32,000 nt of DNA from Candidatus Jordarchaeales archaeon (GCA_038889235.1 JAWAHN010000001.1:814852-846851), one strand, 5' to 3'; positions 5,027-31,562 are shown, numbered from the stretch's first letter. Program-made: numbers and translations. Notes: generated by a model not told the origin, from the letters alone.

Positions 5027-5599
5027 ATGTCGCTTGACGAAAAGACCGCAAAGAGGCTTATCCGGGTACTCCAACAAGTAGAGGATACCACCAAACTTGA
5101 GGGAGTTGCAATAGTAAATAGAGATGGGTTAAGAGTCGCTTGCGCGGAGTCGGCTAAAGTCGATGTCGACACCATTTCAACGGCTTCAGCGGCAATAATA
5201 AACACTAGTGAGACGACCGCCGCGCAGCTGGGGCATGGAAACGTTTCTGAGGTAATAATAAAGGGTGATTCAGGATACCTAATTATAACGAGAGTTGATG
5301 ACCAACATTTCATGGTTGCATCAAGCAGAGACATTATGAGATTAGGGTTAAATCTCGGAATTCTTAAGAGGTACGCGCGATCTATAGCAGAACTTCTCGC
5401 ACAATCAAAGGCTAAAGTAGCAGTACCACAAACGATAATAACACAACCGATTTTGCCTCCTCCAGCAGTTAGTAGAGAAGAAACTGTCAGTGACAAGGAG
5501 GCGATCTTTGAAGCTCTAAGAGCTTTAGGGCTCGAAGACGCAGTTACCGAAGTGCAAGTTCAAAGCAGGAAAGGAGAAGAAAGAACAGAGAGAATATGA
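5027..5599 (+). CDS. Roadblock/LC7 (MglB-like) domain protein with a C-terminal tail
   Basis: 190 aa. LEGVAIVNRDGLRVA...TISTASAAIINTSETTAAQLGHGNVSEVIIKGDSGYLIITRVDD is the typical Roadblock/LC7 pattern. It is followed by a low-complexity Pro/Glu-rich tail of about 70 aa. Confidence 0.65.
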   Translation: MSLDEKTAKRLIRVLQQVEDTTKLEGVAIVNRDGLRVACAESAKVDVDTISTASAAIINTSETTAAQLGHGNVSEVIIKGDSGYLIITRVDDQHFMVASSRDIMRLGLNLGILKRYARSIAELLAQSKAKVAVPQTIITQPILPPPAVSREETVSDKEAIFEALRALGLEDAVTEVQVQSRKGEERTERI

Positions 5600-11719: not shown

Positions 11720-12295
11720 TTATAGGATCTTCCATACGAGTTTATCTCCAACATATTTGCGGTAAACATATATGCCGTCTTGGAAGACTCTTGGATCCTT
11801 TTCTCTGATTTTTGTTGCTTGTTGTATATTTGCAGCGCTTTGCCCCACAGCCTCAATGTCTATACCTGTTAATATTACGTCGTCTTTTTCTACTTTGACA
11901 TTTACTCCTGGAAGAACGTAAGTTTTCCTAGGACTTTTTTCGCCTAGGAAGTTTTCTATGATCACTTCTCTAGACTCTGGAACAAATTTTACACTAATTG
12001 GGAAGTGTGCATAGACAATTTTCATAACATACTTGTAACCTTGCGTCACACCTACGATCATATTCTTAATATGACTTCTCACACTGCCTAGAACAGCCAA
12101 CTGCTTCTTTTTTGGATAATAGGCTTCCAAAACGATTTTATTATCTTCTTTTCTTATGGAAATCCCTCTTGCATGTGAAAAATCCTTTTCCAGCTCACCT
12201 AGAGGGCCCTTGACACGCACTTTCATGCCATCAATGTCCACGTTTACATTGTCAGGAATTTTAACTTCGAGAGCTGCATGGAACGTCTTGACCAT
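11720..12295 (-). CDS. rpl6: 50S ribosomal protein L6 (uL6), inverted relative to the rest of the cluster
   Basis: 191 aa on the minus strand. VKIPDNVNVDIDGMKVRVKGPLGELEKDF...GVTQGYKYVMKIVYAHFPISV...IENFLGEKSPR...GIDIEAVGQSAANI. Confidence 0.93.
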   Translation of the reverse strand: MVKTFHAALEVKIPDNVNVDIDGMKVRVKGPLGELEKDFSHARGISIRKEDNKIVLEAYYPKKKQLAVLGSVRSHIKNMIVGVTQGYKYVMKIVYAHFPISVKFVPESREVIIENFLGEKSPRKTYVLPGVNVKVEKDDVILTGIDIEAVGQSAANIQQATKIREKDPRVFQDGIYVYRKYVGDKLVWKIL

Positions 12296-12347
12296 TGTTT
12301 ACCCTTCCCTCGAATTATTGCTTCAGACTGGATGGAAAATAAGGGGC

Positions 12348-12360
12348 TTTAAATTTATTT
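12348..12360 (-). promoter_or_regulatory. possible own TATA box for the inverted rpl6
   Basis: The minus-sense sequence aaataaatttaaa lies 53-65 nt upstream of the rpl6 ATG, with SD-like gagggaagggt just before the ATG. Confidence 0.25.
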
Positions 12361-12382
12361 CGCAGCAGACTACTTCAAATTA

Positions 12383-12964
12383 TCACTTTTTAATACGTTC
12401 ACTCCACTCCTCAAGCTTGCGCATTAGTTCTTCAGCAGTCTTAATGTCTAATTTCGCTTGCCCGCTCATCCTTAATTGCTTAATGAACTGTGAAATCTCG
12501 TAAAATATTGGACCGTGAACCCTTGATTGCAACTGATCTCTAGCAACCTCCAGCGCATTTGCTATAGCCTCGGCAGGCTGATTTCTTTCGACGAGCTCGA
12601 CAACTTGCGAAAAGGCAGGGGAAAGGCGTACACCGAAACTTTTAACGGTTATCTCCCTTTCAACTGGCAGAGTGGGTTGAACGGGAGCAATCCCTTTTTT
12701 AGCAGAAACGAGTTCTTCAAACCTGCCCCCAGAAAGTTCTTCGAGACGTTTTACCACACTCAAAGCTTCGTCCATTTTCGTGATTAAGACGGACATGCCA
12801 CCAAGCGCTCTGTATATTTCATTCAGCATGCTTCTGAGCTCGTTTAACACCGTTTTTATTTCACCGAATACGCCAAATATCGCTCTTGAAAAGTCGTCGA
12901 GAACTATTTTAACAGCAGATATCTCCTCCAAGACTTTTTCAAATTTCTTATCCATTTCCCCCAA
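12383..12964 (-). CDS. hypothetical alpha-helical protein inserted between rpl6 and rpl32e
   Basis: 193-aa ORF with strong helical/heptad-like composition (EEISAVKIVLDD..., LNELRSMLNEIYRAL, AEELMRKLEEWSERIKK). I recognise no family. Confidence 0.5.
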   Translation of the reverse strand: MGEMDKKFEKVLEEISAVKIVLDDFSRAIFGVFGEIKTVLNELRSMLNEIYRALGGMSVLITKMDEALSVVKRLEELSGGRFEELVSAKKGIAPVQPTLPVEREITVKSFGVRLSPAFSQVVELVERNQPAEAIANALEVARDQLQSRVHGPIFYEISQFIKQLRMSGQAKLDIKTAEELMRKLEEWSERIKK

Positions 12965-16045: not shown

Positions 16046-16468
16046 TTGATTAGAAGAAGGAAGAAGTCACGGAAAATGAGAGGAAGTAGGACGCATGGAT
16101 ACGGCCGAGTAGGGCAGCACAGAGGAAGTGGGCAACGAGGTGGCAAGGGACGTGCAGGAAGACACAAACACTTTTGGATATGGGTTTTGAAGTATGCGAG
16201 AGACTACTTTGGGAAGCGCGGTTTTAAGAGGAAAGGAGTACAGAGAGAGTGGGTGATGTTAAATGTGAGTGACATAGAGGAAAAACTGGAAGTTCTTAAA
16301 ACAGGGGAGGAAAATGGTGTTCCACTAGTGGACCTTACCAGGATAGGCTATGTTAAAGTCCTTGGCACCGGGAAAGTAACCAAGCCAATAGTGGTGATGG
16401 CGCATGCTTTCAGTGAAGAGGCTGTGAGAAAAATAGAAGAAGCTGGAGGAAAGGCAATAAAAATTTGA
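16046..16468 (+). CDS. rpl15: 50S ribosomal protein L15 (uL15)
   Basis: TTG start. RKMRGSRTHGYGRVGQHRGSGQRGGKGRAG. Confidence 0.93.
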   Translation: MIRRRKKSRKMRGSRTHGYGRVGQHRGSGQRGGKGRAGRHKHFWIWVLKYARDYFGKRGFKRKGVQREWVMLNVSDIEEKLEVLKTGEENGVPLVDLTRIGYVKVLGTGKVTKPIVVMAHAFSEEAVRKIEEAGGKAIKI

Positions 16469-16533
16469 GATATTTATTACTGATAAGCTAGAGGGGAACT
16501 TTAATTCCCATCATTTCCTCTCGGTGAAGCCCT

Positions 16534-18189
16534 ATGACGAGCACTTTTTTAAAATCTTTTAAACCGCTAATCCGCTTAATGCCAGAAGTCAAACCTCCAG
16601 AGCGGAGGGTTAGTTTTAGAGAAAAACTGGTGTGGACAGGGGTCATACTTCTTTTATATCTCATAATGGCTAACATTCCCCTTTACGGTGTTCCAAGAGG
16701 GCAAGGGTATGACTACTTGTACTTCCTCAGGCTCATCTTTGCTTCTTCGAGAGGAACATTGATGGAGCTAGGAATAGGGCCTATAGTAACAGCCGGCCTT
16801 ATCATGCAGCTACTTGCAGGCTCTAAATTGATTGATGTCGACTTCTCTAATCCAGAGGATAGGGCGCTTTTTACCGGGGCGCAAAAAGTTCTCGCAGTTA
16901 TAATGACTATGTTTGAGGCAGCAGTGCTCGTACTTGCTAAGACTTATGGTGACCTGTCAAGTTACCAGGCAACACTGGTTTTTCTCCAGCTAACAATTGC
17001 AGGAATCATCCTTATACTGATGGATGAAACTCTTCAGAAAGGCTGGGGGCTTGGAAGCGGAATAAGCTTGTTTATAGCCGCTAACGTAGCAGGGCAAATT
17101 TTGTGGCTTTCGTTAAATCCAAACATTAGCCCATACGACTACCTTGGAAGCGGAGTATTGGTTGCATTAGTTCAGGTTCTAACGTTTCAGTACTGGCCTG
17201 TTGCTTCAATGTTCTTTTATGTTTTGGGTTCATACCCAACCGTTGAACGGTTTAGTGAAAAAGCTATTACAGCAGCAACTGAAGCGGCAACTTACATGTA
17301 TTACTATATGATATTCAACCCAAACACTGGAATATATTACGTCTTATTTAGACCACACGGCCAACCAAACGTAGTCGGCCTCATAGGCACCTTGATAATA
17401 TTCTTAATAGTCGTTTACATACAGAGCGTGCGGGTCGAAATACCCCTTCAATATGCAAGGTTTAGAGGATTCAGGGGAAGATACCCGATTAAGTTCCTCT
17501 ACGTGTCAGTGATACCAGTAATTTTAGTTCACGCTATAAGCGCAAATATATTACTAATTTCGCAGGCATTATGGTCTAATTACGGCTATGTTTCGGTAGC
17601 ACAACTCATACCACTTCTCTCTACCTACCTGCCAGATATAAACTGGAGCGGGCTATCGAGCTTAGCTAATATGGGTTGGAATTTCAACCCGATAGTTAAC
17701 CTGATCGGGCAGTATGCTCCTTCAACAACAAATTTAAACCAGCTGACCCCCATAGGGGGCATAGCGTATTACTTCTCGACACCATACGGACTTGAAAATG
17801 TGTTTAGAGACCCGGGGCGGGCGCTAATTTACCTTCTTATCTTTTCATCCCTTTGCGCTGTATTATCATATATCTGGATAGACGTCTCAGGAATGAACGC
17901 AAAAGATGTAGCTAAACAGTTGATAATGGCCGGAATGCAGGTTCCAGGGTTTAGAAGGTCACCAAAGGTGATAGAAAAAATCCTTGAAAGGTATATCCCA
18001 CCAGTCACCGTCCTTGGAGGGTTCACTGTTGGTTTGCTAGCAGCGTTTGCCGACTTTCTTGGCACTTTAGGAACAGGAACAGGGGTTCTACTAACGGTGG
18101 GAATAATTTATAACTACTATGAGTTAATTGCAAAAGAGAGATTGGCAACTATAAGTCCCGCGCTTAGGGGATTGTTGGGATTGGAGTAA
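16534..18189 (+). CDS. secY: preprotein translocase subunit SecY (unusually long, 551 aa)
   Basis: LMELGIGPIVTAGLIMQLL, YPIKFLYVSVIPVIL, GGIAYYFSTPYGL, GTGTGVLLTVGIIYNYYE. Two long loop insertions relative to the roughly 440-470 aa archaeal SecY proteins I recall. Confidence 0.95.
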   Translation: MTSTFLKSFKPLIRLMPEVKPPERRVSFREKLVWTGVILLLYLIMANIPLYGVPRGQGYDYLYFLRLIFASSRGTLMELGIGPIVTAGLIMQLLAGSKLIDVDFSNPEDRALFTGAQKVLAVIMTMFEAAVLVLAKTYGDLSSYQATLVFLQLTIAGIILILMDETLQKGWGLGSGISLFIAANVAGQILWLSLNPNISPYDYLGSGVLVALVQVLTFQYWPVASMFFYVLGSYPTVERFSEKAITAATEAATYMYYYMIFNPNTGIYYVLFRPHGQPNVVGLIGTLIIFLIVVYIQSVRVEIPLQYARFRGFRGRYPIKFLYVSVIPVILVHAISANILLISQALWSNYGYVSVAQLIPLLSTYLPDINWSGLSSLANMGWNFNPIVNLIGQYAPSTTNLNQLTPIGGIAYYFSTPYGLENVFRDPGRALIYLLIFSSLCAVLSYIWIDVSGMNAKDVAKQLIMAGMQVPGFRRSPKVIEKILERYIPPVTVLGGFTVGLLAAFADFLGTLGTGTGVLLTVGIIYNYYELIAKERLATISPALRGLLGLE

Positions 18190-20777: not shown

Positions 20778-20815
20778 TACTTAAATAAGAAGTAGTGGTG
20801 GTTGTGTTGCCCAGG

Positions 20816-21852
20816 ATGCTCCCGCCGGAGGGTGTAAAGAGGAAAATTATAGTTAAAAGTGATGACGAAACTAGCGAAGAATATGGTAAGCGCCCTGAAG
20901 AGAGAAGCATTGAAGAGCACTTGAAGGGATGCTTCGTTAACATAGATAAACCAGCAGGACCTACTAGTCACGAAGTCTCTTCTTGGGTTAGGAAAATTTT
21001 GGAGTGCTCGAAAACGGGGCACGCCGGAACACTAGAGCCCCTTCTCAATGAGGGGGGCGGTGAAATCCTAAGGTTACCGGCGTTCTACCAGTGGCTATAG
21101 GTTCGGCTACCAAGCTTGTACAAGCTCTTCACCTTATAGGGAAAGAGTATGTATGCGTTATGAGGTTGCATGGCGATGTTGACCCGGAGAGAGTTCAAAG
21201 CGTCTGTAAGGAGTTTATTGGACCGATTTATCAAAGGCCTCCAATACGTTCCTCTGTGAAGCGGAGGCTTAGGGTGAGACAAATATACTACCTTGATGTG
21301 CTCGAAATTGAGGGGAGAAACGTCTTACTAAAAGTGGGGTGCGAGTCTGGCACGTACATAAGGAAGCTTTGCCACGACATAGGAGAAGTCTTGGGTTGTG
21401 GAGCGCACATGCGTGAGCTTAGGAGAACGCGTAGTGGACCATTTACTGAAGACAATATTGTAACTTTGCACGACTTAAAAGATGCTTACGTTTTCTGGAA
21501 GGAAGAAAAGGACGAGACATATATTAGAAAGGTGTTATTACCCTTGGAGACTGGAGTGCAACACTTACCCAAGTTTTACGTGCGTGACTCAACTGTTGAT
21601 GCCATATGCCATGGAGCAGATTTAGCCATTCCCGGAATTGTCAAAGTTGAAGATGGAGTTGAAAAAGGGGATGTTGTGGCGATTTTGACGCTCAAAGGCG
21701 AACTTGTCGCCCTAGGGACTGCAATGATGACGCTTGAGGAAGTTATGAGGGAGAAAAGAGGTATAGCTGTTAAGACAAAAAGAGTGGTGATGGAGAAGGG
21801 TACGTATCCGAAGCTTTGGAAGAGCAAGAAAGAGTCGAACAAAAGTGGGTGA
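20816..21852 (+). CDS. cbf5: tRNA/rRNA pseudouridine synthase Cbf5 (H/ACA RNP catalytic subunit), interrupted by a 29-nt BHB intron: join(20816..21035,21065..21852)
   Basis: Two ORF-track pieces lie in different frames. The first ends ...KTGHAGTLEPLLNEGGG...* and the second contains (KVTGVLPV)AIGSATKLVQAL.... Splicing gives ...GHAGTLD|PKVTGVLPVAIGSATKLVQ, restoring the TruB/Cbf5 catalytic GTLDP motif. A PUA domain follows at the C-terminus. The product is 335 aa. Confidence 0.9.
21036..21064 (+). other. BHB mRNA intron in cbf5 (29 nt)
   Basis: The central 4-bp helix is cact 21030-21033 paired with ggtg 21059-21062. The 5' bulge is aga at 21034-21036 and the 3' bulge is aaa at 21063-21065. 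The inner helix is gcccc 21037-21041 paired with ggggc 21054-21058. The outer helix is weak, either gga/tcc adjacent or cgccgg 21022-21027 with ccggcg 21077-21082. The boundary is ambiguous by 1 nt with an identical product. Confidence 0.85.
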
Positions 21853-21869
21853 AAGTGAGGGGGGTCCCG

Positions 21870-21882
21870 AAAAATATAAAAT
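21870..21882 (+). promoter_or_regulatory. TATA-like box for the rpl44e-rps27e-aIF2alpha unit
   Basis: aaaaatataaaat lies about 50 nt upstream of TTG 21932. SD ggaggt lies at 21917-21922. Confidence 0.35.
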
Positions 21883-21931
21883 CGCGCTGAATTTTTCCTT
21901 TCCCAAAAGCGATGCGGAGGTTAGGTGAGGG

Positions 21932-22248
21932 TTGAAGTACCCCAAAGTTAGGCGGACGTATTGCCCACGGTGTAAGAAGCACACGGAACACATGGTTAGC
22001 GTTTACAAGAAAGGAAAAGACCGAGCTTTAGCCGCGGGAGCTAGACGCTACGCTAGGAAGAAGCGAGGTTACGGAAGCCAGCCTAATCCCTCCTACGCTG
22101 CGTAGAGGGGGGTAAACCCGTACAGAGAGAGTTTGCGAAAATAACTAAGAAGGTAAGCTTTAAACTGAAGTGTAAAGAGTGCGGGCACATTCTACACACG
22201 AAGGGCATTCGCCTGAAGAAGGTCGAGGTAGTTGAGAAAGGAGGGTGA
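21932..22248 (+). CDS. rpl44e: 50S ribosomal protein L44e (eL42), interrupted by a 29-nt BHB-like intron: join(21932..22086,22116..22248)
   Basis: Absent from the ORF track, so this is my own translation. Exon 1 from TTG 21932 reads [51 protein letters not shown], and the unspliced frame continues NPSYAA*. Exon 2, in another frame, reads [44 protein letters not shown]. The spliced product is 95 aa, the usual size, with the GYGSQPKPVQ..FAK.TKK consensus spacing. Confidence 0.8.
22087..22115 (+). other. BHB-like mRNA intron in rpl44e (29 nt)
   Basis: The central 4-bp helix is gcct 22081-22084 paired with gggt 22110-22113, with two G.U pairs. The 5' bulge is aat at 22085-22087 and the 3' bulge is aaa at 22114-22116. 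The inner hairpin spans 22088-22109 (ccctc(c)tacg ctg cgtagaggg). The outer helix is not adjacent; the nearest is tacgg 22070-22074 with ccgta 22118-22122. This makes it a relaxed BHB. A taa direct repeat makes the boundary ambiguous by up to 3 nt with an identical product. Confidence 0.7.
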
Positions 22249-22254
22249 TATACG

Positions 22255-22461
22255 TTGCGGAAGAAGCGTGAAATTATCCCGCAGCCTAAAAGCCGTTTCT
22301 TGAAAGTCCAATGCCCTGACTGTGGCGCGGAAAACATACTTTTCGATAGAGCTAGCACTGTGGTCAAGTGCCATATATGTGGCACAATACTGGCTGAACC
22401 TAGTGGAGGAAAAGCACACTTGTTAGTGAAGGAGGAAAACATAGTACAAGTTTTGAGTTAA
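22255..22461 (+). CDS. rps27e: 30S ribosomal protein S27e (eS27)
   Basis: TTG start. SRFLKVQCPDCGAENILFDRASTVVKCHICGTILAEPSGGKA. Confidence 0.92.
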   Translation: MRKKREIIPQPKSRFLKVQCPDCGAENILFDRASTVVKCHICGTILAEPSGGKAHLLVKEENIVQVLS

Positions 22462-22484
22462 CCAAATTAAGAGGTCGTGGCAAA

Positions 22485-23279
22485 TTGGTTAAACTTAGAA
22501 AAGAATACCCAGATGAAGGAGATCTGGTAGTGGCAACTGTAACGAGAATAGCAAACCATGGAGCCTATGTAACGCTTGACGAGTACGAAGGAAAAGAAGG
22601 GTTGGTCCATATTTCAGAAGTCTCCCAGAGCTGGGTTAGAAACATAAGGAATTTTCTCAAGGAAGGACAAAAAGTTGTTGCTAAGGTTTTAAGAGTGGAC
22701 AAGAAGAAGGGTTTCATAGACCTTTCTCTTAGAAGAGTGACTGAACAGCAAAGGAAACAGAAGATACAGGAGTGGAAGAGGGCGCAAAAAGCGGAAAGCT
22801 TGCTTGAACTTGCAGCTAAAAAGCTGGGGAAAACGATTGACGAAGCATACGAGAAAGCAGGATGGCCCCTCGAAGACAAGTACGGGGAGATATATGCTGG
22901 CTTTGAGAAAGCCGCAGAAAAAGGGGAGCAACCACTTATAGAGGCGGGTGTTGACGAAGAATGGAGTAAGGTGCTTGCGGAGCTAGCTAAAGCATACGTC
23001 GAAATTCCAAAAGTTAAGGTAAGAGGGATCCTAGAACTAACATCCCTCAGAAGGGATGGGATAGAGGCTATTAAGAAGGCTTTAATCGCCGCTGAAAGTG
23101 TAGTTAAAGACGGGGATGTTAACGTTGAAATCTACACTATAGGAGCGCCGCGTTATAGGGTGGAAATATCAGCCAAGGATTATAAGCAAGCCGAAAACGT
23201 GTTAAAAGACGTGGTTTCCACGGCTTTGGCAGTAATTAAGGAAGAGGGAGGAAGTGGAACGTTTATACGTGAGAAATAA
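22485..23279 (+). CDS. eif2a: translation initiation factor aIF-2 alpha subunit
   Basis: TTG start. The S1 domain is PDEGDLVVATVTRIANHGAYVTLDEYEGKEGLVHISEVS..WVRNIRNFLKEGQKVVAKVLRVD. 264 aa. Confidence 0.93.
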   Translation: MVKLRKEYPDEGDLVVATVTRIANHGAYVTLDEYEGKEGLVHISEVSQSWVRNIRNFLKEGQKVVAKVLRVDKKKGFIDLSLRRVTEQQRKQKIQEWKRAQKAESLLELAAKKLGKTIDEAYEKAGWPLEDKYGEIYAGFEKAAEKGEQPLIEAGVDEEWSKVLAELAKAYVEIPKVKVRGILELTSLRRDGIEAIKKALIAAESVVKDGDVNVEIYTIGAPRYRVEISAKDYKQAENVLKDVVSTALAVIKEEGGSGTFIREK

Positions 23280-23282
23280 ATA

Positions 23283-23459
23283 CTACTCTTTTTGCGTAAG
23301 CTCTTTCTTCAGTTTCCGCCTCCATTCTCCGAAACGGTCTTCTAGAGAAAACTTAGGAGGGTGAGGAATTTTTAATTCCCCTCCACAGTAGGGGCACAAA
23401 TCTTGTTTTAAGGTATATCTTTTGCAGGAAGTACACTTCCTAAGTAAGAACCCTGCCAT
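23283..23459 (-). CDS. nop10: H/ACA RNP protein Nop10
   Basis: Below the ORF-track cut-off, so this is my own minus-strand translation: MAGFLLRKCTSCKRYTLKQDLCPYCGGELKIPHPPKFSLEDRFGEWRRKLKKELTQKE*. It has a zinc ribbon plus the PHPP.FS.ED motif. Confidence 0.88.
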   Translation of the reverse strand: MAGFLLRKCTSCKRYTLKQDLCPYCGGELKIPHPPKFSLEDRFGEWRRKLKKELTQKE

Positions 23460-23486
23460 TACTTACGCACTTCTCCTTGCGCACTT

Positions 23487-26024
23487 TTAGGATTCGGATG
23501 TTACTTCAACTATTATTTCTCTTGTGAAGTCAGGTATCGATGTTTCGATCTTTAGAGGGACATGTACTCCTATTTCGAAAGTTAAATTGCTGGTGAACGG
23601 CACTTGAATGATCTCTCCCGGGTTAACTTTGACGGGCGAAATATTGCACAACGTGTTGTTAAGGTAGACAGCAGTCACGTTGAAAGAAACACGACCAATA
23701 TTCTGAACATGCACCAGACCGCTCCCATTTGTATAGACACTTGCGGTGATATTCATGTTGGCATCCAGTATCGAGTAGTCTATTTCGTATATTTTGACCA
23801 AGTGGTTGCTGGATATAAAGACCGGTTTGAAGTACTTTAGAATACTGAAGTTGCTCCAACCGGAGTACCAGCCAGGCTTTGCTTCAACCTCTCTATAGGA
23901 AATTACGAGTGGAAAGTTATTCTGCTTCATATACTGATACAACTGGTAGTCTAGTATTTTTTCACTGTAAACGGGATAGACTTCCGGTGGCGGGTCATGA
24001 TAGTAGAGAAGCTTGTAGAGGGTTGTATTGAAGAACTTTGGTGTATAGATAGTTCCGGTTAATGTTGGAGTGTAGTACTCGTATTCCCATGCAGGTGGGG
24101 AGGGGAAAATCCATGGAGTGGAGAGGTATACGTCAAAAGGAATCCTTACCATCCATATCCACTTCCCTTCATCCCCGTGGAGGTTTGGGTCGTTGTGGCC
24201 AAAGTACACTAAAACGTGAGTTGCGTTAAAGAGACGTAGAATCTGCAGGCTTTCCGTCTCATTTGTAGTAGTTAAAGCGCGCCCTATGAGCGCTATCTGG
24301 GTAGTGTTAAGCGTAGCATTGTCGACTATCGTCGTCTTATTACCGCGAACCATAATCCAGTAACCATAGTCCCACCAGGAAGCCACTATGGCGTCTTCGG
24401 GAAGCTTGTTCTGCATGAAGATAAAGGCTTCAAACCAGTCTAAATACACATTTCCATAACGATCTCTAGGGACAAATTGGGGAGCACCGGAATAAATGGC
24501 TACAGTGGCACCATGTGAGAACGAGAAGAACAGGATAAGACCTGTTAAAATGAGAACTGCTGCCGCAGATTCCCTCCCAAGAATGCGCTTCACAACCGCG
24601 TACCTTCTCTTAACAATAATTTTTTGTTCTCCGGACACGATTTTCGAAAGTGGGCTGTATATTCGTGATAAAGCAAAGCCGGCAAACAAGCAGGCTATGG
24701 GGGCAAACAAAACTATCAGGCGAACCATGGAAGACGCGAAGTAAACTGTTGTTAGACCTAGAAGTATAAGAAATATGTCTTCATCCTTTCTTCTCTGAAA
24801 CGCTAGGTACATTCCTACGGGGAATAACAGCACCGCTACGTGGAGATCGTAGAAGATCATAGCCCACGACGGCAACGCGTGCTCAGCAACGCTAGCCACG
24901 ATAATCTCTTCTTGCCTATAGGACGGTACGACTACTGATAGATACCTGCCGCTGATGCTGAAAATCGATTGGGTGAAAGTGGACAAGGCAAGAGAGAAAA
25001 ATGGGTTCATAGACGCCGCAAACGTGATTACAATTAAGATAGCTGCCAACGAAGCTACCGCTATGATGGTTATGTTCCGTTTGTTCCTAAGTTTTTCATA
25101 GAGTTGAGGGGTTTTTCTCGAAATAGCAGTTAGAAGAGGAGTTATGAATGGCTTGATTCGAGGGGCTGCTTCCAAAACCACCAGTAAAGCTAGAATCAAC
25201 ATTGCCGGGAGGGAGGTGCTTGAAACCATGTAGCTGCTGCCATGGAATGGAATTCTTGTCCCCACGAAGACGCCAAGCAGAACTGTGATGCTATAACTTA
25301 ACAATAAGTTGGTTGAATATCTTTTCATCAACACTAACAGTACCACTGTTAAAGGGTAAATGTAAAGTAGGTACATAGAGGCGCCCCAGCTAGCTATAAA
25401 TCCTCCAAGGGCTAATCCGGAAATAACTGCTGAAGAAACAGACGATTTCTTCAACGACCTTATGAAAAAGAGGAGGGAGAGAAGGAAGAAGAATAGGCCG
25501 ACACATTCGTTGTCAACCAGCCCTGCTATAGATCGTTCAATGGCCCCTGGTAAGAACGAGTACATGAATGAAGAGATTAGGCCAGCCGTGTCATCTAGCA
25601 CTTCTCTCCCAATGAAAAAGATTAAAACACATGATGCCGCGCCCATAACAGCTGGGAGAACATAGCATACAGTGTTTATGTCAACATTGAAACCCAAAGC
25701 TTTCAAGAAAAAGAAAAAGGCAGCGGCTGTGAATGGAACACCAGGCAAATACTTTTGCGACATATCTAATCCATGAGGATACCACATTTTCGGATTGTAC
25801 CAACCAAACCACGCAGAGTAGCCGTAAATCGATATGAAGGCTGCCTGGTAGTATTGTATTGTTGAGTCATAATCGGATATGTAAGGAGGGTATAAGAAGA
25901 ACGGGTAGAGTCTTAACAGGAAACCGAGAAATGTTATAAAAGAAACGCCTAAAGCAGTAAGCAGTATGCGGCGACTCACTTTAAGTTTAACTCCGCTAAG
26001 TACGGCATTAAAAAGGGAAAGCAA
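23487..26024 (-). CDS. aglB: archaeal oligosaccharyltransferase AglB (STT3 family)
   Basis: 845 aa, with a polytopic N-terminal half. The catalytic WWDYGYWI motif (SWWDYGYWIMV) is followed by a soluble C-terminal domain rich in N-x-S/T sequons. The TTG start is uncertain. Confidence 0.88.
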   Translation of the reverse strand: MLSLFNAVLSGVKLKVSRRILLTALGVSFITFLGFLLRLYPFFLYPPYISDYDSTIQYYQAAFISIYGYSAWFGWYNPKMWYPHGLDMSQKYLPGVPFTAAAFFFFLKALGFNVDINTVCYVLPAVMGAASCVLIFFIGREVLDDTAGLISSFMYSFLPGAIERSIAGLVDNECVGLFFFLLSLLFFIRSLKKSSVSSAVISGLALGGFIASWGASMYLLYIYPLTVVLLVLMKRYSTNLLLSYSITVLLGVFVGTRIPFHGSSYMVSSTSLPAMLILALLVVLEAAPRIKPFITPLLTAISRKTPQLYEKLRNKRNITIIAVASLAAILIVITFAASMNPFFSLALSTFTQSIFSISGRYLSVVVPSYRQEEIIVASVAEHALPSWAMIFYDLHVAVLLFPVGMYLAFQRRKDEDIFLILLGLTTVYFASSMVRLIVLFAPIACLFAGFALSRIYSPLSKIVSGEQKIIVKRRYAVVKRILGRESAAAVLILTGLILFFSFSHGATVAIYSGAPQFVPRDRYGNVYLDWFEAFIFMQNKLPEDAIVASWWDYGYWIMVRGNKTTIVDNATLNTTQIALIGRALTTTNETESLQILRLFNATHVLVYFGHNDPNLHGDEGKWIWMVRIPFDVYLSTPWIFPSPPAWEYEYYTPTLTGTIYTPKFFNTTLYKLLYYHDPPPEVYPVYSEKILDYQLYQYMKQNNFPLVISYREVEAKPGWYSGWSNFSILKYFKPVFISSNHLVKIYEIDYSILDANMNITASVYTNGSGLVHVQNIGRVSFNVTAVYLNNTLCNISPVKVNPGEIIQVPFTSNLTFEIGVHVPLKIETSIPDFTREIIVEVTSES

Positions 26025-26263
26025 CCTTTCCGTAGCCAGGTAGGCCGCCTCCTAACCGCTGTACATTAATCTCTGGAAGGAATTATCCTTTAAAACTTTC
26101 TTCACCGTTCCGTCGCAGATTCAGTACCTGGATTCACCATGCGGCAGCTGAGCCCCCGGAGGGCAAAAAGATTTATAAAAGGAAGTAATTTTTAGTCCCC
26201 TTGCTATGGTTTAATTAATGAATTCACGTTGAATATTTACTAAGAGAGTGAAGGGGAATATTA

Positions 26264-26887
26264 ATGAGCAAAGAGCGCGTGAAAGATAAATGGATTACCA
26301 AAAAATGGTTTACAGTTCTTGCACCTGCATATTTCGGGAATGTTGAAATAGGGTTAACCCCAGCTGATAGCCCGGAGAAGGTCATAGGCAGAGTGATCGA
26401 GACCACTTTGTACAACATCACTGGCGACTTCTCGCTAATTCACGTCAAAATATACTTTAAGATAATTAGTGTCTCAGGAGAGGTCGCCCAGACGGAGTTC
26501 TATGGACACGAGTTTGCCAGAGACTACTTAAGAAGTCTCATAAGAAGAGGAACTAGCAAGGTCGACGGAATCTTTGACGTTACAACCAAGGATGGACGAG
26601 CTCTACGAGTATACCCCGTAGCATTTACAGTTAACAGGATTAAAACGAGCCAAGAGAAAGCTATAAGAAAAATAATGGAAGAGGTTGTGAAAAGAAAAGC
26701 GGAACAGTTAAACTACGGCGAGTTTGCCCAAGAGGCCGTGCTCGGAAAAATAGCTTCCGAAATATACAACCTAGCTAAGAAAATAGTTCCTCTAAGAAAG
26801 TGCGAAATTTGGAAAACCAAGCCAATAAAAGCACGAGCAAAAATAGGTGAAGTGCCCCAGGTGGAGGAGGCACAAGCAGCAACCTAG
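26264..26887 (+). CDS. rps3ae: 30S ribosomal protein S3Ae (eS1)
   Basis: VKDKWITKKWFTVLAPAYFG...GRVIETTLYNITGDFS...FARDYLRSLIRRGTSKVDGIFDVTTKDG. Confidence 0.92.
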   Translation: MSKERVKDKWITKKWFTVLAPAYFGNVEIGLTPADSPEKVIGRVIETTLYNITGDFSLIHVKIYFKIISVSGEVAQTEFYGHEFARDYLRSLIRRGTSKVDGIFDVTTKDGRALRVYPVAFTVNRIKTSQEKAIRKIMEEVVKRKAEQLNYGEFAQEAVLGKIASEIYNLAKKIVPLRKCEIWKTKPIKARAKIGEVPQVEEAQAAT

Positions 26888-26953
26888 CCCCAGCATTTTT
26901 CCTACCTTCCATTCATACTGGTAAATACTAAATGAAAGGAAAGGTGCTTCTTC

Positions 26954-27088
26954 ATGGATAAAAAATGTGTTAAGTGTGGTGCGTCTCAAGTTGAAGTTTT
27001 GTTGAAACAACCTGTACATGCTGGTTTTGAATACACCTATAAGTGTTTAGTATGCCATCATACTTGGAAGGAGAAGAAGCGTTTCTAG
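26954..27088 (+). CDS. small zinc-ribbon protein (44 aa), hypothetical
   Basis: My own translation: MDKKCVKCGASQVEVLLKQPVHAGFEYTYKCLVCHHTWKEKKRF*, with two CxxC pairs. Purine-rich aaaggaaagg lies upstream. The 3' end overlaps the pcc1 3' end by 4 nt (convergent). Confidence 0.4.
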   Translation: MDKKCVKCGASQVEVLLKQPVHAGFEYTYKCLVCHHTWKEKKRF

Positions 27089-27336
27089 GCTTTTTGTACT
27101 GTTGAAGAAACGTCTTCTATAATCTTCATACTTGCAAGTATGTCGTCGAGTGTCGATAATAGTGTGCTGATGCTGCCCGTGTACTCAAGAAAGATTAGTA
27201 ATTTGTTTTCGTTTCTTTCCATGCTGAGCTTCATGTTTTTAGGTAGGGGGGCGTTATCAGGTGAAAGAGTTTTTAGTGTAACTTCGGCTTCGAATGAGGA
27301 CGAAAACTCAACTTCAATGACTACCTTAGCATTCAT
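27085..27336 (-). CDS. pcc1: KEOPS complex subunit Pcc1
   Basis: 83 aa. VVIEVEFSSSFEAEVTLKTLSPDNAPLP...LLIFLEYTGSISTLLSTLDDILASMKIIED fits the Pcc1/CTAG pattern and size. Confidence 0.6.
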   Translation of the reverse strand: MNAKVVIEVEFSSSFEAEVTLKTLSPDNAPLPKNMKLSMERNENKLLIFLEYTGSISTLLSTLDDILASMKIIEDVSSTVQKA

Positions 27337-27352
27337 ATCATTACATCCGCTC

Positions 27353-28762
27353 CTACAATCCTGCTAATTCCGCACTTAGAACTTCGATGAATTCGTTTTC
27401 TTTGCCAGCGGGGATGTAGGCTCCAGCAGCAAGATCGTGTCCTCCCGCAACTAAGTTTAACCCCATTTTACTTGCAATATGCTTCATCAGCTCGCCTAGG
27501 TTTACTTCTTTTTTAATTTCTGGTCCTAAACGAGCGGAAACTTTAACCGCTCCTTCTTCTTCGGAATATGCAAAACCAACTATTACCTTGTCTCTATACA
27601 TTTTTGAGGAAGAAAGTATTGAAGTTATTGTTCCAACTATCCGTTCATCTATGTAGCGTCCTCCATTAAACCAGCAGACATCGCCTTTGACATTTATATT
27701 GCCTTCTCCAAGCCAGTTCATGTATTCCGCTATCTTTGCCCGGTATTCCCCAGCCACCTTAATGGCTTCCTCAGAGAATTTTTTGTCACCCAGACATATC
27801 GCCAGTCCTAAACCGGCTTTTCCCGTGCGTCCACAAGCATTTAAAAGGAAGGCGAATTCTCTAGCGTCTCTTACAGGGGTTCCAAGGCGCTCATTGGCTA
27901 GTACGTAGACTGTCCCTACAATGCTCTGCGCTTCTTCCGCACTCATCCCACCGGGACCAAGCATATATTTTACCAGTTCTGAGACTAGAACCGACTTTTC
28001 TTGCTGCGAAAGATCCGATATGGTCCTCCACTTCTCTCCAACCTTTAGTGGAATCTTGACCCGCTCGTTAAGGAACTTTACGCAGGCAGCGTGGTTTCCT
28101 GAGAGCCCGGGTATAAACGGGTCCATCGTGTATTCAAGGGCGACAGGTATGGGGCGGAACTCGCGCCCAAAAAACATCAAGTCTTTAACTTCTTTCAATA
28201 CGCCGACATCAACACCATCTTTTACTATTTCAGCGTTTAAACCAGTTAAGCTTCTCGCTTCGCCCTTATCTTGCCGGTCGCCAAGCGCACCCACCACTGC
28301 TAAAGCTGATAAGTCTCTATTTGAGACATCAACTTCCTTAGCTACCAGGTATGCCATCCCGGCACCGCTGACGTCAATACTTCCATCCACTCCGAATAAA
28401 TGAGGGTTCAAGTGCATGAAATTCACTGTACCAGCCACTTCTTCTGGAGGGTGATGATCTATGACTATGAAGTCCTCCTTGAAAACTTCCTTTAAAATGC
28501 GCAGCTGCCCGCTACCTAAGTCCGTAAACACAAAAATTCTCTCCCTCTTTGGAAGAGAGGCTAAAGCTCGCTCGCTGAGTTGGTGCACGATCCTAACATG
28601 GAACCTAGCATTAAGTCTTTTGAGCATTTTTGAAATGATGCCAGCCGCCGCTAGCCCGTCAGCATCCAAGTGAGATACTACCTGAAATATGCTCGAACCT
28701 GCTTTTTTAACTAAAAAATCGGCGACGCTTTTAGCTGAGTCAATAAGTTGTTGAAGGGACAA
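27353..28762 (-). CDS. DHH/DHHA1 phosphoesterase, archaeal RecJ/Cdc45 (GAN)-like
   Basis: HLDADGLAAAG (motifs I-II), FIVIDHHPP (DHH) and GGHDLAAGA (DHHA1 GGH). 469 aa. Adjacent to rps15. Confidence 0.8.
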   Translation of the reverse strand: MSLQQLIDSAKSVADFLVKKAGSSIFQVVSHLDADGLAAAGIISKMLKRLNARFHVRIVHQLSERALASLPKRERIFVFTDLGSGQLRILKEVFKEDFIVIDHHPPEEVAGTVNFMHLNPHLFGVDGSIDVSGAGMAYLVAKEVDVSNRDLSALAVVGALGDRQDKGEARSLTGLNAEIVKDGVDVGVLKEVKDLMFFGREFRPIPVALEYTMDPFIPGLSGNHAACVKFLNERVKIPLKVGEKWRTISDLSQQEKSVLVSELVKYMLGPGGMSAEEAQSIVGTVYVLANERLGTPVRDAREFAFLLNACGRTGKAGLGLAICLGDKKFSEEAIKVAGEYRAKIAEYMNWLGEGNINVKGDVCWFNGGRYIDERIVGTITSILSSSKMYRDKVIVGFAYSEEEGAVKVSARLGPEIKKEVNLGELMKHIASKMGLNLVAGGHDLAAGAYIPAGKENEFIEVLSAELAGL

Positions 28763-28787
28763 AGTTTCAAGGTCACCCTTTTTCTCA

Positions 28788-29246
28788 TTACTGCCTTACC
28801 AACATGGCTGCTTTCTCGGGGTCATACTTCCAGTCTGGAGGAAGTATACCAGTCCTCTTGTAGTATTTAACCAGCCTGTGGATTTTTGACTCCACGAGCT
28901 GCAGTCCTCTTCGTGAGTGCAGGTCCTTCCTATGTTCTTCAAGGTGGCGTCTGATCCTCAGAGCCCGCCGGATTAAGTTCATAAGGTCTTCGGGTAGGGG
29001 TGGAGCGAGGCCATGCTCCTTCAGAATTTGCGTGATTTTTTTCCCAACTATTGGTTTAACTAGTGGGACGCCATACTGGTCTCTCAATATTATTCCGATC
29101 ATTGATGGCGGGTAACCGTTCCTAGCTAGTTCTACTACTTTGTCGACAACCCATTCCGGCGTTTTATCGAACCATTCTGGCGGTCTTTTGACCGGCGGGC
29201 GCTTGGATGATGATTTACCCCTCTTCCTTGCGTGCATTCTTGCCAT
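28788..29246 (-). CDS. rps15: 30S ribosomal protein S15 (uS15/S13e)
   Basis: [17 protein letters not shown]...[11 protein letters not shown]...[30 protein letters not shown]. Confidence 0.94.
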
Positions 29247-29306
29247 ACTTAGAACCCCTTCTCAACACTCTTTAGATAGCTGGAAGCAAATAAAGAGAGC
29301 ATGGTT

Positions 29307-29885
29307 TTAAATAATTTTCGTGGAGGATAACCATTCTGCGAGCTTTCTGAGAGCCTTCGCCCTATGTGATAGTGCGTTCTTTTCTTCTATGCTGAGCTCG
29401 GCAAAACTTCTTCCATCTCCCTCACTTGGTATGAATATCGGGTCAAACCCAAAACCAAGGTTACCCTTAACTTCATGGGAGATGAATCCCGAGGTGCGTC
29501 CTTCAAATGTTAACACTTCCCCTCCATCCGTGAACGCTACGACAGAGACAAATTCAGCCCGCCTGTTTCTGACGTCTTTCATGAGCTTCAAAATACCTTC
29601 GCAACCTATCTTGCTGAAAACGTATGAGGAGTAAGGTCCGGGGAATCCTTTGAGCGCCTCTATAAAGAGGCCAGCGTCCTCAACGAAAAACGGACACTCG
29701 GGTTTCATCTCTGACATAATCCACGTTAGACTCGCCCTAGCTATTTCCTCCAAACTTTCCGATTGTATTTCAAGGCGCTTTACATTCCACTGCTCAACAA
29801 TTATTCCGTATTCAAGGAAAATTCTGCTTGCCTCCTGAAACTTGTTCTTGTTTCCTGTGACGAAAAGAATTCTCATCTTTCCCAA
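29307..29885 (-). CDS. non-canonical purine NTP pyrophosphatase (Ham1/RdgB ITPase family)
   Basis: ILFVTGNKNKFQEA...VEDAGLFIEALKGFPGPYSSY...GFGFDPIFIP...SFAELSIEEKNALSHRAKAL. Confidence 0.88.
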   Translation of the reverse strand: MGKMRILFVTGNKNKFQEASRIFLEYGIIVEQWNVKRLEIQSESLEEIARASLTWIMSEMKPECPFFVEDAGLFIEALKGFPGPYSSYVFSKIGCEGILKLMKDVRNRRAEFVSVVAFTDGGEVLTFEGRTSGFISHEVKGNLGFGFDPIFIPSEGDGRSFAELSIEEKNALSHRAKALRKLAEWLSSTKII

Positions 29886-30508
29886 TAACGCCCCCTCCTT
29901 TCGATCTCAAACATCTTCTCTATGACTTCGTTTGCACCCTCAAAGGCCTCCCTGTATCCTTCGAGGACTGCATTGAAACCCTCCTCGAAGACATCATAGT
30001 GGCTGCTTTCCATTGCACGCTTCATCAAATGAAGATCCACGCCTAGATCTTCGATGTTCTTTGAGAAATCACCCAGACCAAAGTCTATGAGAAAGACTTT
30101 TCCATCACTAACTATCATGTTCGACGTGGTGAGGTCCCCATGGACTATTCCTCCCTTGTGAAGCCTTCCTATTAGAACACCCACTTTACGTAAAAGTTCG
30201 GTTAGCTCTTCACGCGAGAGTTTTCTCTCTCTTATAAGGTCGCTTAGCGTTACCCCCTCAATGCGATCCATTACTATAGAAGTTGACTCGGGATCCACAA
30301 GGTAAACTGTCGGGGTAGGAACCCCAACTTTCTTGGCACTATGGAGTAAGCGTGCTTCACGAAAAACCCTCTGCTTCCTTAAACCGACGTCTAAGTCCTT
30401 AACCCTATACGATTTGGGCCTACGCTCCTTGACAACAACCATGCGGTTTAAAATTGTTTTTAAGAAAAGGTAGGCTTCGGCACCTTTCCTAATAATCATG
30501 ACATTCAC
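29873..30508 (-). CDS. bud32: KEOPS subunit Bud32 (RIO-type atypical kinase)
   Basis: IIRKGAEAYLF...HKGGIVHGDLTTSNMIVSDGKVFLIDFGLG. GTG/ATG start overlapping the kae1 stop. Confidence 0.88.
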   Translation of the reverse strand: MNVMIIRKGAEAYLFLKTILNRMVVVKERRPKSYRVKDLDVGLRKQRVFREARLLHSAKKVGVPTPTVYLVDPESTSIVMDRIEGVTLSDLIRERKLSREELTELLRKVGVLIGRLHKGGIVHGDLTTSNMIVSDGKVFLIDFGLGDFSKNIEDLGVDLHLMKRAMESSHYDVFEEGFNAVLEGYREAFEGANEVIEKMFEIERRGRYWER

Positions 30509-31562
30509 CCTTCAATCCACGTTACCTGGACTTCATCTAGCCTCCACCTGGGCTTAACGTAGCTCTCTTCGATGCTTAAAGTTCTTCCATAAAGGTACTC
30601 TAATATCCCCGTCCAGGCAATCATGGCTCCATTGTCCCCTGCAAGCTGGTGGGGGACCACGTGAAAGGTGGCATCATGCTCCTCGGCTACCGCCCTGATC
30701 ATCTCCTGCAATCTATTATTCCTACCGACTCCACCAGTTAAGAGCACACTGCTTTTTCGCGTATGAGCCAAAGCTCTCTCAGTAACTTCAGCCAACATTG
30801 AGAAGCAAACTTCTTGTACACTGTAGCATAGGTCTTCGATCTTACAACTACCAATTTTGCCCACCGCGGCGGTGTAGACCCCTGAAAATGAAAGATCCAT
30901 GCCTTTGACGACGTATGGTAGTGGGATAAATGTTTGCCCCCTCCTCGCCAGCTCCTCTATCTTTGGCCCACCTGGATGCTTTAATCCCAAGGCCCTTGCA
31001 AACATGTCCAACATGTTTCCAATTGCTAGGTCTAAGGTCTCACCGAAGACACGGTATTTACCCTTCTCGTAAGCCGCAACTATAGTGTTACCTCCCGACA
31101 CGTAAAGCGTTAATGGGTCATTGACGTTTTCGGTGAGACGGCCTATTTCAATGTGCGCCAGGCAGTGGTTAACCCCAACTAGGGGAACACCTAACAGTAG
31201 CGCCAGTGCTCTAGCTGCCGTCGCCACAGTTCTTAGGCAGGGGCCTTTGGAGGCTTCGCTAACCCCGGCCCCTGGGAGAACGCGACAAGCCCTATTTCTT
31301 TTATATTAATGCCCGCTGTCTCTATAGCGGAAGCTATCACTTGTTTAACGACATTGGAATGGTGTTGCGCAGCCTCTCTGGGGTGGATTCCCCCTTCCAA
31401 GGGGACGTATTCGTCTTTAACGTTCGCTAATATCTCTCCTTCACTGCTTACTATGCCTACACCTAGCGTGTGAGCTGTTCCCTCGATGCCGACGCACAAT
31501 AGGCGGCGGGAGCCTAGTAACTCCCTGACTTTTTTCAGAGTAACGTTGTTATTCGCTTTCAT
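30505..31562 (-). CDS. kae1: tRNA N6-adenosine threonylcarbamoyltransferase Kae1 (KEOPS catalytic subunit), interrupted by a 14-nt BHB intron: complement(join(30505..31246,31261..31562))
   Basis: Two ORF-track pieces lie in different frames: ...[16 protein letters not shown]...HPREAAQHH...[17 protein letters not shown] and (V)[28 protein letters not shown]...GDNGAMIAW.... The splice gives FSQGPGL|[15 protein letters not shown], the canonical Kae1/TsaD motif, and a 347-aa product. The true start may be the internal TTG just before CVGIEGTA. Confidence 0.85.
31247..31260 (-). other. BHB mini-intron in kae1 (14 nt, sense agcgaagcctccaa)
   Basis: The sense strand reads aggggcc|gggg|tta|gcgaagc|ctcc|aaa|ggcccct. 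The outer 7-bp helix is 31273-31267 with 31245-31239. The central 4-bp helix is 31266-31263 with 31252-31249, with one G.U. The two 3-nt bulges are 31262-31260 and 31248-31246. The inner element is a gc(gaa)gc mini-hairpin. The boundary is ambiguous by 1 nt with an identical product. Confidence 0.8.

Follow-up and report, generated by a model that had tools for sequence, protein, structure and literature searches.

Archaeal tRNA and rRNA genes reportedly carry introns with bulge-helix-bulge (BHB) structures, and Marck and Grosjean are said to have distinguished in 2003 the hBHBh' motif from the relaxed HBh' and hBH motifs. An intron in the cbf5 pre-mRNA of Crenarchaeota was reportedly described by Watanabe in 2002 and by Yoshinari in 2006. 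Non-spliceosomal mRNA splicing is also known from HAC1 and XBP1, where the endonuclease Ire1 cuts and a tRNA ligase (RtcB in metazoa) then acts; the XBP1 intron measures 26 nt. Here, we analyse a stretch of 32,000 nt (in the following: the window) from the metagenome-assembled genome (MAG) of an uncultured Candidatus Jordarchaeia (Asgard) archaeon, in which the genes cbf5, rpl44e (encoding eL42) and kae1 are each broken by a short insert. We conclude that the three inserts are very probably BHB introns of the respective pre-mRNAs, cut by the tRNA-splicing endonuclease EndA, joined by an RtcB-type ligase, and most probably spliced constitutively and tolerated.

The crenarchaeal cbf5 intron lies between letters 1 and 2 of the catalytic Asp codon and measures 16-44 bp, with in-frame 33- and 39-bp versions on record (PMC2738675). 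Its gain was inferred in the common ancestor of Desulfurococcales and Sulfolobales by the 2009 study of Yokobori, which also cites unpublished cDNAs of several crenarchaeal species in agreement with the predicted borders (PMC2738675). On each strand of the motif, read 5' to 3', 4 nt of the central helix precede a bulge of 3 nt, and the cut falls between bulge nucleotides 2 and 3 (PMC2738675). A further EndA substrate is the HVO_1309 mRNA of Haloferax volcanii (PMC7714728; review PMC10485636). For archaeal mRNA substrates, a 2023 review names solely HVO_1309 of Haloferax and cbf5, the latter from a small group of Crenarchaeota, and expects more. Our full-text literature searches found no published report of introns in rpl44e or kae1.

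Relation to known systems

The cbf5 intron is already known from other hosts, and its kind is not new. It shares with the crenarchaeal intron the gene and the insertion point (G/AU here; a slash marks a junction throughout), a relaxed BHB motif and the cut between bulge nucleotides 2 and 3. At 29 nt, its length fits the published 16-44 bp, and in both groups some variants shift the frame and others keep it. In contrast to the published cases, the host is an Asgard archaeon and not a member of the Desulfurococcales or Sulfolobales, and two further mRNA introns occur beside it. New for cbf5 are the Asgard host and an apparently larger breadth of occurrence. The initial annotation had suggested that the genome may hold many more such introns, far beyond the single-gene cbf5 situation. 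Of the three introns, those of rpl44e and kae1 exceed the published cases of cbf5 and HVO_1309, and the cbf5 intron occupies the published crenarchaeal position.

Like HVO_1309, the two additional genes would represent non-cbf5 mRNA substrates of the archaeal splicing endonuclease. HVO_1309, however, is a different gene from a euryarchaeon with an alpha2-type enzyme, whereas here three substrates reside in one cluster of core translation genes. In comparison to archaeal tRNA and rRNA introns, we observe the same motif geometry, presumably the same EndA/RtcB machinery and a similar size (11-175 nt in case of tRNA introns), and the kae1 intron represents a textbook minimal hBHBh' motif. With 13-14 nt, the shortest kae1 introns are below any reported cbf5 intron and still inside the tRNA intron range. 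Unlike the introns of stable RNAs, the three inserts reside in open reading frames (ORFs), their outer and central helices are partly built from codons of conserved motifs, and their removal would serve translation instead of RNA folding.

The locus would thus add a ribosomal protein gene and a t6A synthase gene to the archaeal mRNAs processed by the endonuclease. It also comprises three such introns within approximately 10 kb of one genome, in the Asgard archaea, the prokaryotes most closely related to eukaryotes. The identical cbf5 site in Asgard archaea and Crenarchaeota reopens the question of the age of this intron.

Reading frames and junctions

The window is a dense archaeal cluster of genes for ribosomal proteins and information processing, and its closest neighbourhood among 80 GTDB species representatives is found in Jordarchaeia RPF2 (L067). 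In the raw sequence, cbf5 is split into two ORFs (20795..21100 and 21091..21852, plus strand), as is kae1 (31233..31562 and 30505..31227, minus strand), while rpl44e is represented by an ORF of 57 aa (21932..22105, plus strand) that continues in a different frame. Excision of the 29, 29 and 14 nt that the initial annotation had proposed turns cbf5, rpl44e and kae1 each into one open frame, with lengths of 335, 95 and 347 aa, respectively (Table 1). The spliced proteins match solved structures end to end and without a gap at the junction: Cbf5 the Pyrococcus protein (PDB 2hvy, E = 1.8e-127), Kae1 the Methanocaldococcus protein (PDB 5jmv, E = 6.7e-122) and L44e/eL42 the Sulfolobus protein (PDB 8hku, E = 1.5e-30).

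All three junctions fall into highly conserved motifs, again as predicted: GTL-D/PKVTG with the catalytic Asp codon in Cbf5, GYGSQPK/PV in L44e and SQGPGL/GPCLR in Kae1. In case of cbf5, the junction ...CUAG/AUCC... generates GA(U), the Asp of GTLDP. The predicted spliced-junction sequences of the three sites are GAACACUAG/AUCCUAAGG, CCAGCCUAA/ACCCGUACA and GCCGGGGUU/AGGCCCCUG.

Unspliced transcripts would terminate prematurely, also in agreement with the initial annotation. The first stop codon is met at 21098-21100 in cbf5, at 22103-22105 (within the intron) in rpl44e and at 31233-31235 in kae1, that is, 6-21 codons past the 5' splice site, and the unspliced frames thus encode truncations only.

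Public gene calls list cbf5 and kae1 as two "genes" each (under the NCBI names Cbf5 and TsaD), and rpl44e is either missed or reduced to the 57-aa stub. Since essential genes are split or missed by gene callers in public MAGs, marker-gene sets and completeness estimates are distorted. Taken by itself, this fragmented annotation is also what one would expect from assembly or sequencing errors, or from decaying pseudogenes, in a single MAG. Against such an origin stand the strong purifying selection on the exons, the essential and single-copy nature of all three genes, and at least 15 assemblies of independent origin in Logan, ENA, JGI and NCBI that show the same interruptions. We consider this explanation the least probable of all, and the comparative data effectively refute it.

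Table 1. Exons, introns and predicted structural elements of the three interrupted genes.
Feature	Coordinates	Strand	Remarks
cbf5 exon 1	20816..21035	+	ATG at 20816; upstream GTG at 20795 likewise open; 3' end is the G of the catalytic Asp codon
cbf5 BHB intron, 29 nt	21036..21064	+	BHB-defined cuts; same site as crenarchaeal cbf5 introns (PMC2738675)
cbf5 exon 2	21065..21852	+	stop codon included
cbf5 layout			GGAA-CACU-AGA-(22-nt hairpin)-GGUG-AAA-UCCU
cbf5 central helix	21030-21033 with 21059-21062	+	CACU with GGUG; one G.U
cbf5 bulges	21034-21036; 21063-21065	+	5' AGA; 3' AAA
cbf5 inner hairpin	21037-21058	+	h' strong
rpl44e (eL42) exon 1	21932..22086	+	TTG start
rpl44e BHB intron, 29 nt, relaxed type	22087..22115	+	BHB-defined cuts
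rpl44e exon 2	22116..22248	+	stop TGA 22246-22248 included
rpl44e layout			GCCU-AAU-(22-nt hairpin)-GGGU-AAA
rpl44e central helix	22081-22084 with 22110-22113	+	GCCU with GGGU; two G.U
rpl44e bulges	22085-22087; 22114-22116	+	5' AAU; 3' AAA
rpl44e inner hairpin	22088-22109	+	h' strong
kae1 exon 1	31261..31562	-	
kae1 BHB mini-intron, 14 nt, canonical hBHBh'	31247..31260	-	BHB-defined cuts
kae1 exon 2	30505..31246	-	stop codon included; overlaps bud32 start
kae1 layout (outer/central/bulge/inner/central/bulge/outer)			CAGGGGCC-GGGG-UUA-GCGAAGC-CUCC-AAA-GGCCCCUG
kae1 outer helix, 8 bp	31274-31267 with 31245-31238	-	CAGGGGCC with GGCCCCUG
kae1 central helix	31266-31263 with 31252-31249	-	GGGG with CUCC; one G.U
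kae1 bulges	31262-31260; 31248-31246	-	5' UUA; 3' AAA
kae1 inner mini-hairpin	31259-31253	-	GCGAAGC; h' of 2 bp plus GAA loop

Predicted BHB structures

Each of the three exon-intron borders can be folded such that a 4-bp helix separates two bulges of 3 nt, one on either strand, and the cuts predicted from this geometry, between bulge nucleotides 2 and 3, are exactly the junctions that restore the frame. The strict hBHBh' form is found in kae1, where the outer helix h comprises 8 bp. In cbf5, the outer helix GGAA/UCCU is limited to 3-4 bp with one mismatch. The features named in the initial annotation, a G.U pair in the 4-bp central helix and cleavage past the second bulge nucleotide, are present at all three sites of the window. 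The AAA 3' bulge is likewise shared within the window, but it is replaced by AAG in rpl44e of close relatives and by UGA in kae1 of two distant lineages (L067 and L171).

Several observations weigh against this interpretation. The rpl44e site has no contiguous outer helix and thus only conforms to a relaxed, HBh'-like motif, and the central helix of rpl44e in the relative L166 contains an A.C mismatch. The minimum free energy fold of the 13-14-nt kae1 introns (31238-31274, minus strand) is not the BHB structure but a competing 6-bp hairpin, GGGGUU/AGCCUC, with a 4-nt 3' bulge. When the window is scanned for generic BHB motifs, 47 hits are obtained compared to approximately 36 in shuffled sequences, hence chance motifs are common. 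Finally, no EndA or RtcB genes were found within the window or its flanks.

The competing kae1 hairpin can also form in L162 and L166, and it could affect cleavage kinetics. In the generic scan, kae1 alone stands out, and the scan is unfit for the detection of additional introns. One of the BHB-like motifs, with an outer helix of 10 bp, lies on the minus strand at 21876-21892 in the A/T-rich spacer between cbf5 and rpl44e; this match, which overlaps sequence resembling a promoter or terminator, is probably due to chance.

Nevertheless, the inserts are beyond chance, because the BHB motif falls on precisely those nucleotides that restore the frame, the sites are kept in 15 other assemblies, and the helices covary. 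The relaxed motifs of rpl44e and cbf5 would be in good agreement with the enzyme of the Asgard archaea, since their (alpha-beta)2 EndA with its L1 loop has a broad substrate specificity and accepts relaxed motifs (PMC5829648).

Conservation across relatives

For comparison, two groups of close relatives were available (L162-L165 and L166-L168), with approximately 83-89% amino-acid identity and perfect synteny; the seven assemblies are independent and originate from Logan, ENA, JGI and NCBI. The interruptions of cbf5 and rpl44e occur at the sites of the window in all seven, and kae1 is interrupted at its site in each of the three close-relative loci that reach that far. The comparison across related genomes that had been suggested in the initial annotation thus finds the same three sites split in independent assemblies. 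This extends to distant lineages, where the same site is split in cbf5 (L169, L170 and L176), in rpl44e (L173 and L174) and in kae1 (L067, L171 and L172).

Intron lengths, with the window given first, are 29, 30, 31, 27, 32 and 31 nt for cbf5, 29, 30, 30, 33 and 33 nt for rpl44e, and 14, 14, 13, 29, 30 and 28 nt for kae1. The claim that none of the three intron lengths is divisible by three therefore holds for the window (29, 29 and 14 nt) but not for the relatives with versions of 27, 30 and 33 nt. All of these in-frame introns contain in-frame stop codons, an observation which is biased, as the distant loci were found via truncated gene calls. We regard the frame-breaking length as incidental.

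Between distant lineages, the intron interiors are mostly unrelated; compensatory changes, in contrast, maintain the helices. For cbf5, 94% of the alignment cells are paired, six pairs are changed on both sides, and the covariation score of 0.42 (0.24 in shuffled alignments) is reached in none of 500 shuffles; sliding the 3' partners by 1-3 columns reduces it to 0.15 or less. The values for kae1 are similar (98% paired; five pairs changed on both sides; 0.40 compared to 0.20; 0 of 500). The signal of rpl44e is weaker (91% paired; four pairs changed on both sides), and its score of 0.215, compared to 0.172 after shuffling, is reached in 88 of 500 shuffles. An individual case is the central helix of kae1 in L172, where a G-C pair is swapped to C-G, coupled to an altered Leu codon.

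The initial annotation's assignment of these inserts to endonuclease-type introns in protein-coding genes is thus well supported by geometry, exact junctions, conserved sites and covariation. The same data bear on translational recoding, in which the ribosome would bypass or frameshift over the inserts without any RNA splicing, comparable to hopping in T4 gene 60. Short inserts with a stable hairpin and a stop soon past the take-off region would suit such a mechanism. However, take-off and landing codons do not match, and insert lengths differ by 1-16 nt among relatives while the two-bulge geometry is kept by compensatory changes. Moreover, the cuts predicted from the BHB motif yield the exact junction, and the crenarchaeal cDNAs mentioned above fit the predicted borders at the same cbf5 site. 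Recoding is therefore highly improbable in our view.

A MAFFT alignment of a 21-kb syntenic stretch from three species points in the same direction. Intragenic indels that are not a multiple of three are confined to gene termini, to an unconserved ORF of 44 aa and to the three introns. Because of this indel pattern and the comparative data, pseudogenes, assembly errors and translational bypassing are all very unlikely.

How far the introns extend beyond these lineages was addressed by several scans. Among the 80 species representatives, kae1 is split in one, Jordarchaeia RPF2. A metagenome scan with the spliced Cbf5 protein kept 80 loci, all of them unsplit, non-syntenic and with at most 63% identity, where scoring by best segment ranks split genes lower. 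About half of the 120 Cbf5 clusters closest to our protein, however, start at the same point and are devoid of the N-terminal DKCLD domain, and because of this truncation the cbf5 intron seems to occur in environmental archaea much more widely than the "small group" of the literature would suggest. Judged from truncated predictions in 23 of 120 clusters, the kae1 intron also seems to be fairly common, while the rpl44e intron, with truncated predictions in 5-6 of 88 clusters, looks rarer than that of kae1.

Mechanism and possible regulation

From the predicted structures, the following pathway can be proposed. The transcribed exon-intron borders would fold into a BHB or relaxed BHB structure, EndA would cut each 3-nt bulge past its second nucleotide, and the exons would then be joined by an RtcB-type ligase. 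Functional protein would be encoded by the spliced mRNA only, because the unspliced RNA meets a stop within 6-21 codons. While inserts, structures, restored junctions and conserved sites are observed directly in the sequences, we infer the involvement of EndA and RtcB, as well as the actual occurrence of splicing. In related Asgard classes, 92-95% of the tRNA genes contain introns (PMC11291895), and the splicing machinery is therefore heavily used there.

The initial annotation went further and suggested a possible splicing-dependent circuit, in formal analogy to HAC1/XBP1. In a regulated form of it, removal of the introns would be rate-limiting or condition-dependent, and the output of Cbf5, eL42 and Kae1 would be tuned to the capacity of endonuclease and ligase. 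Some of our findings can be read in this way. Every unspliced form stops early, including the in-frame versions of 27, 30 and 33 nt, the introns persist at identical sites over divergent lineages, and the short kae1 introns have the competing alternative fold described above. EndA is loaded with tRNA introns in the related lineages, and a role as negative regulator was earlier proposed for the cbf5 intron (PMC2738675).

Several points speak against it, however. The stops within in-frame introns are partly an effect of ascertainment, and the persistence is accounted for just as well if the precise loss of an intron from an essential motif is difficult. It is true that all three genes serve translation or RNA modification, as was pointed out initially, but the genes present in the window lead one to expect this: approximately 32 of its 47 genes are of this type, and the chance probability of three out of three is about 0.3.

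The analogy to HAC1/XBP1 is restricted as well. Common to both are the route via an endonuclease and a tRNA ligase and a small intron whose removal shifts the reading frame. Ire1, in contrast, is activated by stress and recognises twin stem-loops, whereas here a BHB structure and presumably the tRNA-splicing endonuclease are involved. Regulation is demonstrated there and purely conjectural here. Both XBP1 isoforms (XBP1u and XBP1s) encode proteins, while the unspliced forms of our genes yield short truncations and no alternative protein, so this part of the comparison does not hold. Taken together, we regard the circuit as speculation and as unlikely; most probably, the introns are spliced out constitutively and do not serve as a regulatory device, but are inherited vertically and tolerated.

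On a larger scale, one may ask whether Jordarchaeia-type Asgards keep a whole population of endonuclease-type mRNA introns in their core information-processing genes, next to tRNA genes that are rich in introns, with a cbf5 intron that predates the Asgard/TACK split and with EndA/RtcB capacity as a global gate. At present, we consider this rather doubtful. If true, the cbf5 intron would be an ancient intron of a protein gene, and the gate would couple the output of ribosomes and tRNA modification to tRNA maturation.

Search for further introns

The three-genome alignment of 21 kb of the window did not reveal a fourth intron. The gene tables of nine other intron-bearing loci (approximately 165 kb) and roughly 10 kb of additional flanking sequence of this genome contain no other split gene, and small ORFs near the window gave no Pfam hits that point to more of them. 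The surmise of the initial annotation that the genome may hold many more introns therefore gains no positive support. A scan for relaxed BHB motifs combined with ORF restoration, applied to the window and the nine loci, was swamped by artefacts at gene boundaries.

SecY was considered as a host of hidden in-frame introns and rejected: its inserts show mostly third-position changes and no indels, and are thus coding. Compared to solved SecY/Sec61 structures, the unusually long protein (16534-18189, plus strand, 551 aa) carries two inserts of approximately 40 aa, at residues ~200-266 and ~345-405. The Cys-rich ORF of 44 aa between the genes of S3Ae and Pcc1 (26954-27088, plus strand) shows frame-breaking indels in relatives and is probably not a gene.

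According to ARAGORN, neither the window nor nine Jordarchaeia-like loci (approximately 160 kb) contain a tRNA gene, and its single hit lies in L169; an Rfam search of the window and the loci gave no known RNA as a basis for a comparison with the genome's own tRNA introns. The absence of tRNA genes from the scanned loci may be due to chance, or to tRNA genes that are heavily disrupted by introns as in the related Asgard classes.

Other features of the locus and its relatives

Genes of the eukaryote-signature type are consistent with an Asgard origin. The window contains a Roadblock/LC7 protein gene (5027-5599, plus strand), and small GTPases of the Arf/Ras family are encoded in the intron-bearing loci L172 (8357-9611), L173 (4259-4744) and L174 (166-651); the kae1 locus of L172 adjoins Arf-family GTPase genes. 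In L171, a Jordarchaeia-like contig, an IS605 OrfB/TnpB (Cas12f-like) gene (16253-17419, minus strand) is located near the S3Ae gene. On the minus strand of the window (11720-12964), the uL6 gene is inverted with respect to the otherwise co-directional operon S8...L32e-L19e-L18-S5-L30-L15-SecY and is followed on the same strand by an ORF of 193 aa without a Pfam hit, an arrangement which is kept in L162 and L166.

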